Positions 35,987 through 41,748 of a DNA stretch of 64,000 nucleotides are shown here, piece by piece. How positions within the stretch are numbered: the first letter of the stretch is position 1; every line of letters begins with the position of its first letter. The stretch lies in the NCBI RefSeq assembly GCF_003018235.1, contig NZ_CP027437.1. One strand, written 5' to 3'. Both the position numbers and the translations under genes were made by a program. The DNA comes from Escherichia coli. Lineage in GTDB: Bacteria; Pseudomonadota; Gammaproteobacteria; Enterobacterales; Enterobacteriaceae. The notes under the pieces were generated by a model, which saw only the letters and a list, made by a program, of their open reading frames with translations, did no database searches and was not told where the DNA came from.

Positions 35987-36576
35987 TTGTGACCATAAAA
36001 CATTTATCAAAAATCTACTACTAGCATAGCAAAGCTACAATTAACATAACCTTAATAGCCCCAACATAAAGAACAATCTGAATAGCTGCTCTATTTATTT
36101 CCGCTTGTTTAAGTTAAATATTTCCGCGCATCGATTAAAGATGATGCGTCGTTTTCTGCGATGGGAATAGTCAAAAAAGAAAAACCAAGTCTTTTTTGAT
36201 GACAAAATGCAACCAAGAAAAAATTACTTTATTTTTTAATGAGATACAAAAAAAATTCCTTAACGAAAAATATATTATATATCGTCAACCCATGATCATG
36301 GTAGATTATTTTTTGAGCGCACACCCGCGGCTAACACCATTGCAATTAACAAATTTGCATCAATCCACCATCAATTTACACACATTATTATGTGATAATT
36401 GCCAACCGCTAAATATGCGTTTTGTTATCTATGTATAAAAACAGCAACTTCAATGTCTTAATGGCAGTTTTTCTTGATTTTAATCAGCATTCACCGCCAA
36501 TTTATTGGGCATATTTTTTCCTTAAGCTTTAGGAATTTTTTATTATTTACTTTGGGGCCTGGAGACAGGAAAAATT

Positions 36577-37962
36577 ATGCTGACATTCATTGAACTCCTT
36601 ATTGGGGTTGTGGTTATTGTGGGTGTAGCTCGCTACATCATTAAAGGGTATTCCGCCACTGGCGTGTTATTTGTCGGTGGCCTGTTATTGCTGATTATCA
36701 GTGCCATTATGGGGCACAAAGTGTTACCGTCCAGCCAGGCTTCAACAGGCTACAGCGCCACGGATATCGTTGAATACGTTAAAATATTGCTAATGAGCCG
36801 CGGCGGCGACCTCGGCATGATGATTATGATGCTGTGTGGCTTTGCCGCTTACATGACCCATATCGGCGCTAATGATATGGTGGTCAAGCTGGCGTCAAAA
36901 CCATTGCAGTATATTAACTCCCCTTACCTGCTGATGATTGCCGCCTATTTTGTCGCCTGTCTGATGTCTCTGGCCGTCTCTTCCGCGACCGGTCTGGGTG
37001 TTTTGCTGATGGCAACCCTGTTTCCGGTGATGGTAAACGTTGGTATCAGCCGTGGTGCAGCTGCTGCTATTTGTGCCTCCCCGGCGGCGATTATTCTCGC
37101 ACCGACTTCAGGGGATGTGGTGCTGGCGGCGCAGGCTTCCGAAATGTCGCTGATTGACTTCGCCTTCAAAACAACGCTGCCTATCTCAATTGCTGCAATT
37201 ATCGGCATGGCAATCGCCCACTTCTTCTGGCAACGTTATCTGGATAAAAAAGAACACATCTCTCATGAAATGTTAGATGTCAGTGAAATCACCACCACTG
37301 CCCCTGCGTTTTATGCCATTTTGCCGTTCACGCCGATCATCGGAGTGCTGATTTTTGACGGCAAATGGGGTCCGCAATTACACATCATCACTATTCTGGT
37401 GATTTGTATGCTGATTGCCTCCATTCTGGAGTTCATCCGCAGCTTTAATACCCAGAAAGTTTTCTCTGGTCTGGAAGTGGCTTATCGCGGGATGGCAGAT
37501 GCATTTGCAAACGTGGTGATGCTGCTGGTTGCCGCTGGGGTATTCGCTCAGGGGCTTAGCACCATCGGCTTTATTCAAAGTCTGATTTCTATCGCTACCT
37601 CGTTTGGTTCGGCGAGCATCATCCTGATGCTGGTATTGGTGATCCTGACAATGCTGGCGGCAGTCACGACCGGTTCAGGCAATGCGCCGTTTTATGCGTT
37701 TGTTGAGATGATCCCGAAACTGGCGCACTCTTCCGGCATTAACCCGGCGTATTTGACTATCCCAATGCTGCAGGCGTCAAACCTCGGCCGTACCCTGTCA
37801 CCCGTTTCTGGCGTAGTCGTTGCGGTTGCCGGGATGGCGAAAATCTCACCATTTGAAGTCGTAAAACGCACCTCGGTGCCGGTGCTTGTTGGGCTGGTGA
37901 TTGTTATCGTTGCTACAGAGCTGATGGTGCCAGGAACGGCAGCCGCGGTCACAGGCAAGTAA
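36577..37962 (+). CDS. dcuC: Anaerobic C4-dicarboxylate carrier
   Basis: 461-aa polytopic membrane ORF. Confidence 0.93.
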   Translation: MLTFIELLIGVVVIVGVARYIIKGYSATGVLFVGGLLLLIISAIMGHKVLPSSQASTGYSATDIVEYVKILLMSRGGDLGMMIMMLCGFAAYMTHIGANDMVVKLASKPLQYINSPYLLMIAAYFVACLMSLAVSSATGLGVLLMATLFPVMVNVGISRGAAAAICASPAAIILAPTSGDVVLAAQASEMSLIDFAFKTTLPISIAAIIGMAIAHFFWQRYLDKKEHISHEMLDVSEITTTAPAFYAILPFTPIIGVLIFDGKWGPQLHIITILVICMLIASILEFIRSFNTQKVFSGLEVAYRGMADAFANVVMLLVAAGVFAQGLSTIGFIQSLISIATSFGSASIILMLVLVILTMLAAVTTGSGNAPFYAFVEMIPKLAHSSGINPAYLTIPMLQASNLGRTLSPVSGVVVAVAGMAKISPFEVVKRTSVPVLVGLVIVIVATELMVPGTAAAVTGK

Positions 37963-38002: not shown

Positions 38003-38683
38003 TCACCCACTGTGGTATATGCGTTGCGGTCTGCCAACTTTGCCGTGAACAATTTCAGCAATAATCAGATGGCGGCTGGCGCAATATTCAAGATAACGTC
38101 TGGCAGTGGTGCGGCTGATAGTCAGTGCCTGCGCCACCGTTTCTGCCGTATGTTGCACACCAGGCTCTTTAAACAGTTTTCGCACTGCGTTTAGCGTCAA
38201 GGGGTCAATGCCGGTCGGCAGTTCGTCTTTGGGTTCACCGCGAGCATAGGCATTAAACATCTCATCAATTTGCTTCTGGCTGGCGCTATCAATACTTTCC
38301 AGCATATGTTTACGCTGGCGGAAGCGGGTTAGCGTTTGCCCCAGCCGTTCATAGGCAATTGGCTTAATGAGATAATCAAATACACCACAACGTACGGCTT
38401 CAGACACCGTTTCCATATCACTGGCTGCAGTGGTAAACACCACGTCGCCGGGATAATGCGCCTGCACCAGTTCATGCAGTAAATTAATCCCTCTACCGTC
38501 AGGAAGATAGTTATCAAGCAAGATTAGCCCCGGCTTAAAACGCTCGATCATCATTCGGGCCTGCGCCAGGTTTCCCGCCAGTAATATCTGACTGAATCCG
38601 GGAATGTGACGAATATATTCCGCATGCATCTCTGCCAGCGGCGTTTCGTCCTCAACGATCAATAGGGTTAATGGAGCTGTCAT
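38003..38683 (-). CDS. dpiA: Two-component response regulator DpiA (CitB)
   Basis: 226-aa ORF with receiver domain (LLIVEDETPL, conserved Asp) and C-terminal HTH. Confidence 0.93.
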   Translation of the reverse strand: MTAPLTLLIVEDETPLAEMHAEYIRHIPGFSQILLAGNLAQARMMIERFKPGLILLDNYLPDGRGINLLHELVQAHYPGDVVFTTAASDMETVSEAVRCGVFDYLIKPIAYERLGQTLTRFRQRKHMLESIDSASQKQIDEMFNAYARGEPKDELPTGIDPLTLNAVRKLFKEPGVQHTAETVAQALTISRTTARRYLEYCASRHLIIAEIVHGKVGRPQRIYHSG

Positions 38684-40310
38684 TAGGTTTCACTTTCGGA
38701 ATATAGATTGAAAATAAGGTACCGCAGGGATCATTATCTTCGAGAGTGATAACACCACCGCAGCGCGTTACGTAGCTGGCAATCAAGTACAACCCAATGC
38801 CATGTTCGCCGGGCTCGTCAGCACGCGTACTGACACCCTGCTCAAATATTTTGTCTCGTAGAGACTCTGGAACGCCGCAGCCCTGATCGGCGACTTCAAT
38901 CACCACATCATCGCCTTCATCGCTGAGGAATAATTCAACGATCTTGTTTCCTTCATCGCTACGCAGGCTGGCTTCGAAGGCGTTATCAAGTAAATTGCCC
39001 ACAATGGCTGCAAACTCGGTGCTGTCCAGTCCTGGCGGCAGTTGCGAAAGCTGACTTCCGGGGACGATGACCATTTTTAGCCCCAGTTCGCGGGCGCGCT
39101 GCACTTTACCAAAAAGCAGCCCCGCCACCTGGCGATCGGCAAACGCCTCGCGCAGGCTATCAATAAGCTGTTGCTGGGCCTGAGACTCCCCCTGCACCAT
39201 CGCCAACACGCGATCATACTCTTTCATCTGCAACAGACCATTGAGCGTCGACATCCAATTGAGATGCTCGTGTCGCAATGTGCGCAGGCTCTCGACGTAT
39301 TGTTTAATTTGCGTCAGTTGCGCATTGAGGGTGGATATTTCGTCTTTACTACGAAAGCTGATAATGGCCCCCAGCAAATCATCACCAGAACGAATAGCTT
39401 CCCGGTTGGCAATAACGCTCAGACCGTTAAAGTTCGCCACCACATCCTGACGTTTTTCATCAATCTGTTCGGTAAAGAAATCGGCGGGCCTGACCACTTC
39501 AGCAATGGGTTTACCCAACCATTGCCGTCCGGGGGAACTCAGACCCAGCATCTTTCTTGCGTTACGATTGATGGCGGTAATGTAACCATGCGGATCCACC
39601 GCAATGAGCCCTTCATAAACCGAACTAAACAGCGCCTCTTGCTGACGGACCACGCGTGCGATTTGCTTTGGCTCCATGCCCATCATCTGCCGACGGATAT
39701 GCGCGGCCAGGAACCACGATAGCAACATCAGAATCCCTAACAGCACGACAAACACGCCAGCCATCGGTAATAAAAACTCAGCCCGCCAGCTATCGATTTT
39801 ACTCACCAGGTAGCCAATCGACACCACGCCGATGACTTTTCCATCGTCATCAAAGATTGGCGTTTTGGCACGCATCGCCATGCCAATTGACCCTTTCCCG
39901 GTGATGAAGTAGCTCTCCCCTTTCTCCAGCGCGCCCGGTTTGGTGAACTGCATAGGATAACCAATTTTCTCCGGATTAGGATGGTAAAGACGAATCGAGT
40001 GGCGATCGCCAATCACCACATAATCGAAATCAGTATCTCTTTGTAATTTATCAGCGATGGTCGCCAGCCTCTTGTAGTCACGCGTTTTCACTGCGCTGAT
40101 GATACTGTCATTAGAAGCAATAATTTTTGCCTGATTCATTGCCATGTCGCGCACATGAAGCGTTAAATAGTCCTCAAAACTGGCCGTAAAATATTGCGCC
40201 AGGGCTGCAATGACAAATATTGAGAACACCAGAATCAGCAAAAAGATACGCAGCGGAAATGCCAGTCTTTGGAAAAATGCAAACTGTTTATTCTCGTTAA
40301 GCTGCAACAT
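38652..40310 (-). CDS. dpiB: Citrate-sensing histidine kinase DpiB (CitA)
   Basis: 552-aa protein from MLQLNENKQFAFFQRL; two TM segments, periplasmic sensor, PAS and kinase core; track ORF has a 20-codon extension. Confidence 0.93.
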   Translation of the reverse strand: MLQLNENKQFAFFQRLAFPLRIFLLILVFSIFVIAALAQYFTASFEDYLTLHVRDMAMNQAKIIASNDSIISAVKTRDYKRLATIADKLQRDTDFDYVVIGDRHSIRLYHPNPEKIGYPMQFTKPGALEKGESYFITGKGSIGMAMRAKTPIFDDDGKVIGVVSIGYLVSKIDSWRAEFLLPMAGVFVVLLGILMLLSWFLAAHIRRQMMGMEPKQIARVVRQQEALFSSVYEGLIAVDPHGYITAINRNARKMLGLSSPGRQWLGKPIAEVVRPADFFTEQIDEKRQDVVANFNGLSVIANREAIRSGDDLLGAIISFRSKDEISTLNAQLTQIKQYVESLRTLRHEHLNWMSTLNGLLQMKEYDRVLAMVQGESQAQQQLIDSLREAFADRQVAGLLFGKVQRARELGLKMVIVPGSQLSQLPPGLDSTEFAAIVGNLLDNAFEASLRSDEGNKIVELFLSDEGDDVVIEVADQGCGVPESLRDKIFEQGVSTRADEPGEHGIGLYLIASYVTRCGGVITLEDNDPCGTLFSIYIPKVKPNDSSINPIDR

Positions 40311-40370
40311 TGTTTTCCTTGCGGGTTGTCCCGAGCCTCTTTGACGAATGTAATTAAAATGTTGAATCAA

Positions 40371-40689
40371 AATACATAGATATTAAATATAATCGTGGCA
40401 AATTTTATTCATTAAATCAATTAAATCACTTAAAACTGCGGGTCATTTCGTAATTACATTAATTAAAAAACTTAAAACCATTAAATAAATAAAAAACCAC
40501 TAACTCTATGTGAAATAAATCAAAATTTCACGCTGCAATACTCCTTAGGATGTATAGCGAAAGGAGAAAAAGATATACCTCGATCGCCCCCCTTTCTCCC
40601 AAGTAAAAATAAAAGGTTATCAGTTTGCAACATCGAACAACATTCGTTGCAAATCGATAACAACATGCACCTTCAGGATACTATTTATT
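40371..40689. promoter_or_regulatory. Divergent dpiB / citC control region (AT-rich, motif-repeat laden)
   Basis: 319-bp spacer with iterated TTAAAT/CATTAAAT motifs and a 22-bp palindrome GTGAAATAAATCAAAATTTCAC (40510-40531). Confidence 0.5.
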
Positions 40690-41748
40690 ATGTTCGGCAA
40701 TGATATTTTCACCCGTGTAAAACGTTCAGAAAATAAAAAAATGGCGGAAATCGCCCAATTCCTGCATGAAAATGATTTGAGCGTTGACACCACAGTCGAA
40801 GTATTTATTACCGTAACCCGCGATGAAAAGCTTATCGCGTGCGGTGGAATTGCCGGAAATATTATTAAATGCGTTGCTATCAGTGAATCCGTTCGCGGTG
40901 AAGGACTGGCGCTGACATTAGCCACCGAGCTAATTAACCTCGCCTATGAGCGGCACAGCACGCATCTGTTTATTTATACCAAAACCGAATACGAGGCGCT
41001 GTTCCGCCAGTGCGGTTTTTCCACGCTGACCAGCGTACCCGGCGTGATGGTGCTGATGGAAAACAGCGCCACGCGACTGAAACGCTATGCCGAATCGCTG
41101 AAAAAATTTCGTCATCCAGGGAACAAGATTGGCTGCATTGTGATGAACGCCAATCCCTTTACGAATGGTCACCGTTATCTGATTCAACAGGCTGCAGCAC
41201 AGTGCGACTGGTTGCATCTGTTTTTAGTTAAAGAAGATTCTTCACGCTTTCCCTATGAAGACCGGCTGGATCTGGTGTTAAAAGGCACCGCCGATATTCC
41301 ACGCCTGACTGTGCATCGCGGCTCCGAATACATCATCTCCCGCGCTACGTTCCCTTGCTACTTCATTAAAGAACAGAGCGTCATTAACCATTGTTACACC
41401 GAAATTGATCTGAAGATTTTCCGTCAGTACCTCGCTCCCGCGCTGGGTGTAACTCACCGCTTTGTCGGTACTGAACCCTTTTGTCGCGTTACCGCCCAGT
41501 ACAACCAGGATATGCGCTACTGGCTGGAAACGCCGACTATCTCCGCACCGCCCATCGAACTGGTTGAAATTGAGCGGCTGCGTTACCAGGAGATGCCGAT
41601 ATCCGCTTCCCGGGTACGTCAACTGCTGGCGAAAAACGATCTCACGGCTATCGCGCCGCTGGTCCCTGCAGTCACGCTGCATTATTTGCAGAACCTGCTT
41701 GAGCACTCCCGCCAGGACGCGGCAGCTCGTCAAAAGACCCCCGCATGA
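40690..41748 (+). CDS. citC: [Citrate lyase] ligase (acetate:SH-citrate lyase ligase)
   Basis: 352-aa ORF; first gene of the cit cluster. Confidence 0.93.
   Translation: MFGNDIFTRVKRSENKKMAEIAQFLHENDLSVDTTVEVFITVTRDEKLIACGGIAGNIIKCVAISESVRGEGLALTLATELINLAYERHSTHLFIYTKTEYEALFRQCGFSTLTSVPGVMVLMENSATRLKRYAESLKKFRHPGNKIGCIVMNANPFTNGHRYLIQQAAAQCDWLHLFLVKEDSSRFPYEDRLDLVLKGTADIPRLTVHRGSEYIISRATFPCYFIKEQSVINHCYTEIDLKIFRQYLAPALGVTHRFVGTEPFCRVTAQYNQDMRYWLETPTISAPPIELVEIERLRYQEMPISASRVRQLLAKNDLTAIAPLVPAVTLHYLQNLLEHSRQDAAARQKTPA

Follow-up and report, generated by a model that had tools for sequence, protein, structure and literature searches.

The dpiB-citC intergenic control region of Escherichia coli: a comparative map of putative DpiA repeats, a CRP-type site and a NarL-like element

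The citrate-fermentation locus and its divergent spacer

The window, a stretch of 64 kb of E. coli DNA from contig NZ_CP027437.1, carries the citrate-fermentation locus in the reverse orientation relative to K-12. Within it lie dcuC (36577-37962, + strand), dpiA (38003-38683, - strand), dpiB (38652-40310, - strand), and citC (40690-41748, + strand, with its ATG at 40690), which is followed by citD, citE, and citF. By tblastn, CitC is 100% and DpiB 98.9% identical to the K-12 protein. These identities and the K-12 annotation bear out the preliminary description of the region, which had placed it between the divergent genes dpiB and citC. The left edge given there, position 40371, is however an artefact of an open reading frame extended to a TTG codon; as in K-12, dpiB begins with the ATG at 40310, so that the spacer starts at 40311. 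Taken together, the K-12 annotation, the tblastn result, and an Escherichia alignment define the complete divergent control region as 40311-40689, a length of 379 bp. The genes dpiB and dpiA are adjacent to their target operon citCDEF, which is the gene context of a CitB/DpiA regulon. The reading frames of dpiA and dpiB share 32 nt (38652-38683), again as in K-12, and this overlap suggests translational coupling of the sensor and the regulator.

As had been described, the spacer is AT-rich, with a GC fraction of 0.19-0.24 over 40350-40549 compared to about 0.5 in the flanks. It is present in 5419 of 5426 complete E. coli genomes, mostly at 95-99% identity, and coverage of the spacer falls below 80% in about 50 of these 5419. 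(Megablast with a 106-bp AT-rich block retrieved 882 E. coli genomes; this count is attributed to low-complexity filtering and word size, and it was not used as a measure of conservation.) In E. coli LB19b (NZ_CM196076.1, 3158131-3158899), an IS1A element stands in place of the segment that corresponds to 40387-40619; IS1 is then directly upstream of citC, and three features described below, namely the DpiA repeats, the -10 element, and the CRP-type site, are lost.

For the comparison among genera, a CitC scan using one genome per species yielded 80 loci. In Escherichia, Citrobacter, Salmonella, Hafnia, Buttiauxella, Edwardsiella, and others, citC is preceded by a divergent dpiB, and the spacer between the two genes is of comparable length. 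(A locus of Klebsiella spallanzanii was dropped as the Klebsiella comparator because its gene arrangement differs.) The block 40451-40556 hardly varies within Escherichia. When conservation was scored across 20 genera-level sequences, a series of islands emerged: ATGTAAT(T/A)AAAATGTT at 40347-40362, ATCGT(G/T)(G/A)CA(A/G)ATT at 40391-40404, TTAAATCAATTAAA at 40412-40425, TTAATTAAAAAACTTAAAACCAT(T/A)AA at 40459-40486, TTTGTGAAATA..TCAAAA at about 40507-40525, ATACTCCTTA(C/G)GAT at about 40538-40551, and AAAA.GTTATCA at about 40613-40622.

A scan of 40200-40800 for σ70 promoter and terminator consensus sequences found nothing, which is consistent with a promoter that depends on an activator and has no -35 hexamer. 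An Rfam scan of the region returned a single sub-threshold match (SCARNA7, E=0.086), which is attributable to chance, and a known RNA element is thereby ruled out.

The CRP/FNR-type site and the geometry of the citC promoter

A sequence of the CRP/FNR type, TGTGA-AATAAA-TCAAA, occupies 40509-40524, centred at 40516.5. It agrees with the CRP consensus TGTGA-N6-TCACA, the kind of site expected of a class II CRP promoter, at 9 of the 10 core positions, and it is the single match to TGTGAN6TCAMA in the 64-kb window, where 0.33 would be expected. When the 450 nt 5' of citC were searched in 78 loci, TGTGA-N6-T[CG]A was present in 60, including loci in which dcuC rather than dpiBA is the neighbouring gene. 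These 60 loci and the window make up a gap-free alignment of 61 sequences, which is anchored on the TGTGA site. In all 61 a hexamer TAnn[AC]T follows; counted from the T of TGTGA, its distance is 36-38 nt, and in 55 of them it is exactly 37 nt. Hexamer positions 1, 2, 5, and 6 are conserved across the 61 sequences, and positions 3 and 4 are free. This pattern is the signature of a σ70 -10 element, and TAGGAT (40546-40551, + strand) is therefore taken as the putative -10 hexamer of citC. From its position, transcription of citC would start on the + strand at about 40558 (range 40556-40559), giving a leader of about 132 nt. The gap between the CRP-type site and the -10 is fixed at 21 nt; if TAnnAT is indeed the -10, the site would be centred at -41.5, the class II position.

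The most likely occupant of 40509-40524, judging from this geometry and from related systems, would be cAMP-CRP acting in the class II mode. The left half carries the CRP-type base (GTGA) in every one of the 61 sequences. In Klebsiella pneumoniae, citrate fermentation is controlled by CitB and cAMP-CRP, and CRP binds the citC-citS spacer. The Klebsiella CRP sites are reportedly centred at -41.5, and CitB is said to have stimulated the binding, in work of Meyer, Dimroth and Bott from 2001. According to a 2025 study, a citrate sensor made from the dpiAB-PcitC region of Citrobacter rodentium and placed in an E. coli host was subject to cross-regulation by the host DpiAB, NarL, and cAMP-CRP (PMC12405535).

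Could this site instead be filled by FNR, or by FNR and CRP in turn, so that it provides the anaerobic induction of citC? This reading, in which GTGAA-ATAA-ATCAA is recognised as a relative of TTGAT-N4-ATCAA, draws on several features: the operon is induced anaerobically, -41.5 is also the standard position for activation by FNR, in Escherichia, Citrobacter, and Salmonella the right half (ATCAA) agrees fully with an FNR half-site, and the FNR-type TCAA is present in 56 of the 61 sequences, with the CRP-optimal TCAC in only 2. Yet the site matches the FNR consensus at just 8 of 10 positions, the left half is GTGAA in 61 of 61 with the FNR-type TTGA never seen, and the A of ATCAA is not conserved beyond the closest genera. 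Matches to the consensus with 2 mismatches are uninformative, given that the window holds 52 of them and 33 are expected. In the available part of the FNR ChIP-seq supplements, which cover the wild type and an hns stpA mutant, neither citC nor dpiB is among the peaks; as far as that part goes, citCDEFXGT is listed in the hns stpA mutant solely for an O2-dependent change in expression (PMC3688515). The Klebsiella site, moreover, has been assigned to CRP. An FNR or dual CRP/FNR site is consequently considered unlikely. Elsewhere in the window, TTGATTTTAATCAG at 36474-36487 has a single mismatch to TTGAT-N4-ATCAA. The ATG of dcuC, a gene activated by FNR, follows at a distance of about 100 nt (36577), and the match is probably the FNR site of dcuC.

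The right half-site also bears on how CRP itself would use the position. It reads TCAA or TCAT in 59 of the 61 sequences, and TCAA has the FNR-type base, which speaks against a simple cAMP-CRP site. Neither citC nor dpiB is mentioned in the genomic SELEX study of E. coli CRP, supplements included, so that CRP alone may bind weakly. Furthermore, the orthologous promoter is strongly induced in medium with 20 mM glucose (PMC12405535), a poor fit to strict dependence on cAMP-CRP. The asymmetric core GTGA...TCAA, with a left half of the CRP type and a right half of the FNR type, might be a selected hybrid open to both cAMP-CRP and FNR, or else a deliberately weak CRP site that is filled only cooperatively with phosphorylated DpiA (DpiA-P). 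Either version is given a low probability here; if the hybrid were true, the citC promoter would combine its carbon and oxygen inputs at one position, -41.5.

A NarL/NarP-like element with 7-2-7 spacing, TACTCCT-TA-GGATGTA (40539-40554), overlaps the -10 hexamer. The first heptamer, TACTCCT (40539-40545), fits TACYYMT at 7 of 7 positions and adjoins the -10, and the second, GGATGTA (reverse complement TACATCC), fits at 5 of 7; a single NarL heptamer is not rare, with 38 in the window and 28 expected. Some Citrobacter and Buttiauxella sequences have TACCCCT, and such Y-to-Y substitutions keep the NarL consensus. The orthologous promoter is inhibited by nitrate and cross-regulated by NarL (PMC12405535). 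A NarL-like element over the -10 fits this known nitrate repression, and, with support from the conservation of the first heptamer, the 7-2-7 element may be the operator concerned. Two other reports touch on this spacer: SELEX with the RpoS holoenzyme gave a weak peak within it, and deletion of citR (ybdO) raises the expression of citCDEF, with no binding of CitR at the spacer reported.

Phased TTAAA repeats as putative DpiA operators

The spacer had been described as carrying iterated TTAAAT motifs, and these are readily found: four copies are present, at 40383, 40412, 40421, and 40481, all on the + strand, and the related CATTAAAT occurs twice, again on the + strand both times. Such repeats are scarce when the spacer, or its AT-rich core, is shuffled with dinucleotides preserved. 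Shuffles of the spacer give 0.89 copies of TTAAAT for the four seen (P=0.009) and 0.07 copies of CATTAAAT for the two seen (P=0.0005), and for TTAAA[AT], with 8 copies on one strand compared to 2.3 expected (P<0.0005), the observed count was reached in none of 2000 shuffles. Six of these 8 copies form two triplets with an exact period of 9 bp, an arrangement present in 0.02% of 5000 AT-matched shuffles (P about 2e-4). All of these repeat P values are indicative only, because the motif was picked after inspection.

Cluster A, nearer to dpiB, has its TTAAA[AT] copies at 40412, 40421, and 40430 (40412-40438, + strand); its core box, the TTAAATCAATTAAA island at 40412-40425, is near-invariant across genera. 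Cluster B has copies at 40463, 40472, and 40481 (40463-40489, + strand) and spans about -95 to -69 relative to the putative citC start. Its core box, TTAAAACCATTAAA at 40472-40485, is the best-conserved AT-rich element, and TWAAW is found at the offset of this box in 51 of 61 loci. Both triplets are conserved across the Enterobacterales (20 to 61 sequences). They have in common a 14-bp box, TTAAAWCMATTAAA, whose only exact matches in the 64-kb window are at 40412-40425 and 40472-40485.

Insight into what these triplets do comes from the C. rodentium sensor, for which the DpiA sites were taken from EcoCyc's map of E. coli; a truncated C. rodentium promoter from which these sites were deleted no longer responds to citrate (PMC12405535). 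Alignment of the truncation primer, DTR305_Fwd, shows that it starts at CATCTAACTCTTTGTGAAATAAATCAAA, which corresponds to position 40497 of the window. In terms of the window, both repeat triplets are lost in the truncation, and the TGTGA site and the -10 remain. The loss of the citrate response along with the triplets supports the repeats as DpiA operators; since the region of the flagged palindrome (40510-40531, discussed below) was kept and there was no induction, that region alone is insufficient. The phased and conserved repeats, considered with the deletion in the orthologous promoter, are what would be expected if AT-rich target sequences are needed for citrate induction. The TTAAA(T/A) triplets are thus most likely operators for phosphorylated DpiA (CitB), and we infer that cluster A is the dpiB-proximal operator and that cluster B is the one that activates citC. 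DpiA is also reported to target the uxaC-exuT spacer; the TTAAA-N4-TTAAA box, with its 9-bp period, was looked for there and none was present, and a general DpiA motif is therefore not claimed.

The low GC content of the region (19-24%) would also suit a more generic role, in which the repeats are curved DNA that serves as a platform for silencing by H-NS/StpA, or as an UP-like element, rather than as specific operators. In keeping with this, the available part of one study has citCDEFXGT induced anaerobically, in glucose medium, only in the hns stpA double mutant (PMC3688515). However, exact 9-bp phasing in two triplets exceeds an effect of composition, TTAAATCAATTAAA and TTAAAACCATTAAA are conserved base by base over large evolutionary distances, and deletion of the segment in the orthologous promoter abolishes the citrate response specifically. 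Generic AT-rich DNA is accordingly an improbable account of the repeats. Binding of H-NS and DpiA operators can in any case coexist, and an influence of H-NS would complement the assignment of the triplets to DpiA; the mutant data suggest that nucleoid proteins damp the citC promoter or its AT-rich region.

The flagged palindrome and the organisation of the control region

The preliminary description had singled out a 22-bp palindrome with perfect arms, GTGAAAT-N8-ATTTCAC, and this is found exactly as given at 40510-40531. Of the dinucleotide-preserving shuffles of the spacer, 59% contain one or more inverted repeats whose perfect 7-bp arms are at most 20 nt apart, so the palindrome alone is no evidence of function. 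Its two arms, furthermore, are conserved to different extents. The left arm (40510-40516) lies within the CRP-type site, and the right arm, ATTTCAC (40525-40531), would fall inside the promoter spacer that separates the -35 and -10 positions, from about -33 to -27. Mean information in the 61-sequence alignment is 1.71 bits for the left arm, a value due in part to the anchor, which fixes four of its bases, and 0.69 bits for the right. The islands conserved across the 20 genera-level sequences do not include the right arm. In Citrobacter and Salmonella it reads ATTTACC, ATTTATC, or AATTACC, and elsewhere outside Escherichia it has other sequences; its TCAC is confined to Escherichia. The palindrome thus fails as a unit when orthologous cit regions are compared. 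It had also been held that the palindrome does not match canonical CRP or FNR spacing and that its binding partner was unassigned. Neither statement survives, since the left arm and the bases that follow it belong to TGTGA-N6-TCAAA, which has the canonical spacing and would lie at the class II position. On its sequence and conservation, the palindrome is best read as a probable CRP-type site joined to an Escherichia-specific coincidence. That the full palindrome is the operator of an Escherichia-specific dimeric regulator yet to be identified is very improbable: its perfect 7-bp arms do not vary among seven Escherichia lineages, E. albertii and E. whittamii among them, but the whole of 40451-40556 is nearly invariant as well, with no special conservation of the arm, while Citrobacter, Salmonella, and all other genera lose the right arm and keep the left arm and TCAA, chance supplies similar palindromes in more than half of the shuffles, and the right arm falls inside the promoter spacer.

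The spacer is therefore read, with a good though not complete degree of confidence, as one that holds the triplets of DpiA repeats, a class II CRP-type site whose apparent right arm is coincidental, and a NarL-like element over the -10. What is observed are the sequence features, together with the fact that they are not random, are conserved, and keep a fixed geometry. The dependence on the DpiA operators, the control by CitB and CRP in Klebsiella, and the effects of nitrate/NarL and cAMP-CRP on the orthologous promoter are taken from published papers; from the two together we infer the citC start site and the protein that would sit on each element in this strain. In the mechanism that follows, the spacer would drive dpiBA leftward and citCDEFXGT rightward. 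DpiA-P would bind the triplets, the citC-proximal one (about -95 to -69) supplying activation in response to citrate. Contact between RNA polymerase and cAMP-CRP at -41.5 would raise the output of the DpiA-dependent promoter, which would provide catabolite control, and the NarL-like element overlapping the -10 would mediate repression by nitrate. The earlier proposal that multiple inputs, DpiA plus global regulators, converge here is thereby strengthened: phased, conserved repeats lie where deletion removed the DpiA operators, and papers report control by citrate/DpiAB, anaerobiosis, nitrate/NarL, and cAMP-CRP.

The control region is already known and documented, and its architecture is ordinary. 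What is added here is a comparative map at the level of the base, which covers the DpiA triplets, the CRP-type site, the -10, and the NarL-like element. Its main value lies in annotation, in that a seeming orphan operator resolves into a CRP-type half-site and a lineage-specific coincidence. There is also a practical use, given that the citC promoter serves as a part in a gut biosensor (PMC12405535), and the distinction between conserved and dispensable bases is a guide when that part is trimmed or tuned.

The closest known system is the same locus in K-12, where citCp and dpiBp (EcoCyc/RegulonDB; Yamamoto et al. 2008/2009; Scheu et al. 2012) share the 379-bp spacer. Between K-12 and the window, the palindrome, the CRP-type site, and the -10 do not differ, and the two repeat clusters differ at base 40478 alone; over the whole spacer there are only strain-level substitutions (roughly 2-3%). 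The citS-citC region of K. pneumoniae (Bott, Meyer and Dimroth 1995-2001) likewise has divergent citrate-fermentation promoters with AT-rich upstream targets for CitB, and CRP is a co-activator in both systems. The divergent partner differs, being dpiBA itself in E. coli and citS-oadGAB-citAB in Klebsiella. In the E. coli spacer a clear CRP-type site is present on the citC side only. With class II CRP promoters of the galP1 and melAB type, in which the site at -41.5 overlaps the -35 region, the citC promoter has in common the TGTGA-N6-TCA core, the lack of a recognisable -35 hexamer, and a fixed gap of 21 nt to the -10; unlike them, it needs a second upstream activator, DpiA, and its promoter-proximal half-site is consistently TCAA rather than TCAC.

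Several further elements flank this core. On the dpiB side, the block ATGTAATTAAAATGTT (40347-40362) is conserved from Escherichia to Edwardsiella, and its distance upstream of the dpiB ATG is 37-52 nt. A possible -10 for dpiB (TACATT) is found in it on the minus strand. The block also resembles an ArcA direct repeat (TGTAA-N6-TGTTG); in the ArcA ChIP supplements neither citC nor dpiB is listed, and an ArcA site at 40347-40362 was set aside as a likeness only. Between this block and cluster A, (A/G)ATCGT(G/T)(G/A)CA(A/G)ATT (40391-40404) is again conserved from Escherichia to Edwardsiella and has a near-copy, TCGTTGCAAAT, at 40644-40654.

On the citC side, the putative leader contains an inverted repeat (40616-40661) with 16-nt arms that are 88% complementary and a 14-nt gap. 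RNAalifold on 12 genera-level sequences found no conserved pairs at this repeat, and a conserved riboswitch or attenuator in the citC leader was rejected for this reason. In the leader segment 40613-40664 the blocks AAAA.GTTATCA, (A/G)CAACA, and AACAA are conserved across genera, with no conserved structure. The leader is much shorter, about 40-50 nt, in four loci from several Enterobacteriaceae in which dpiBA does not intervene and citC directly follows dcuC in the same orientation; a TGTGA-N6-TCA site, a single TTAAAACC box, and the -10 are still present there. Read on the minus strand (40603-40661), the inverted repeat folds as a hairpin that is followed by the T-run CCUUUUAUUUUUAC (z = -2.2). 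The hairpin is specific to Escherichia, and with its T-run it looks like an intrinsic terminator for antisense transcription, that is, in the direction of nog1. Also on the minus strand, an open reading frame of 101 aa with a GTG start (40620-40925) runs antisense to the 5' end of citC. It matches nog1, an overlapping gene of EHEC (PMC4683798), in length and position, and, with the citC start placed where it is now, the final 70 nt of the frame fall within the spacer.
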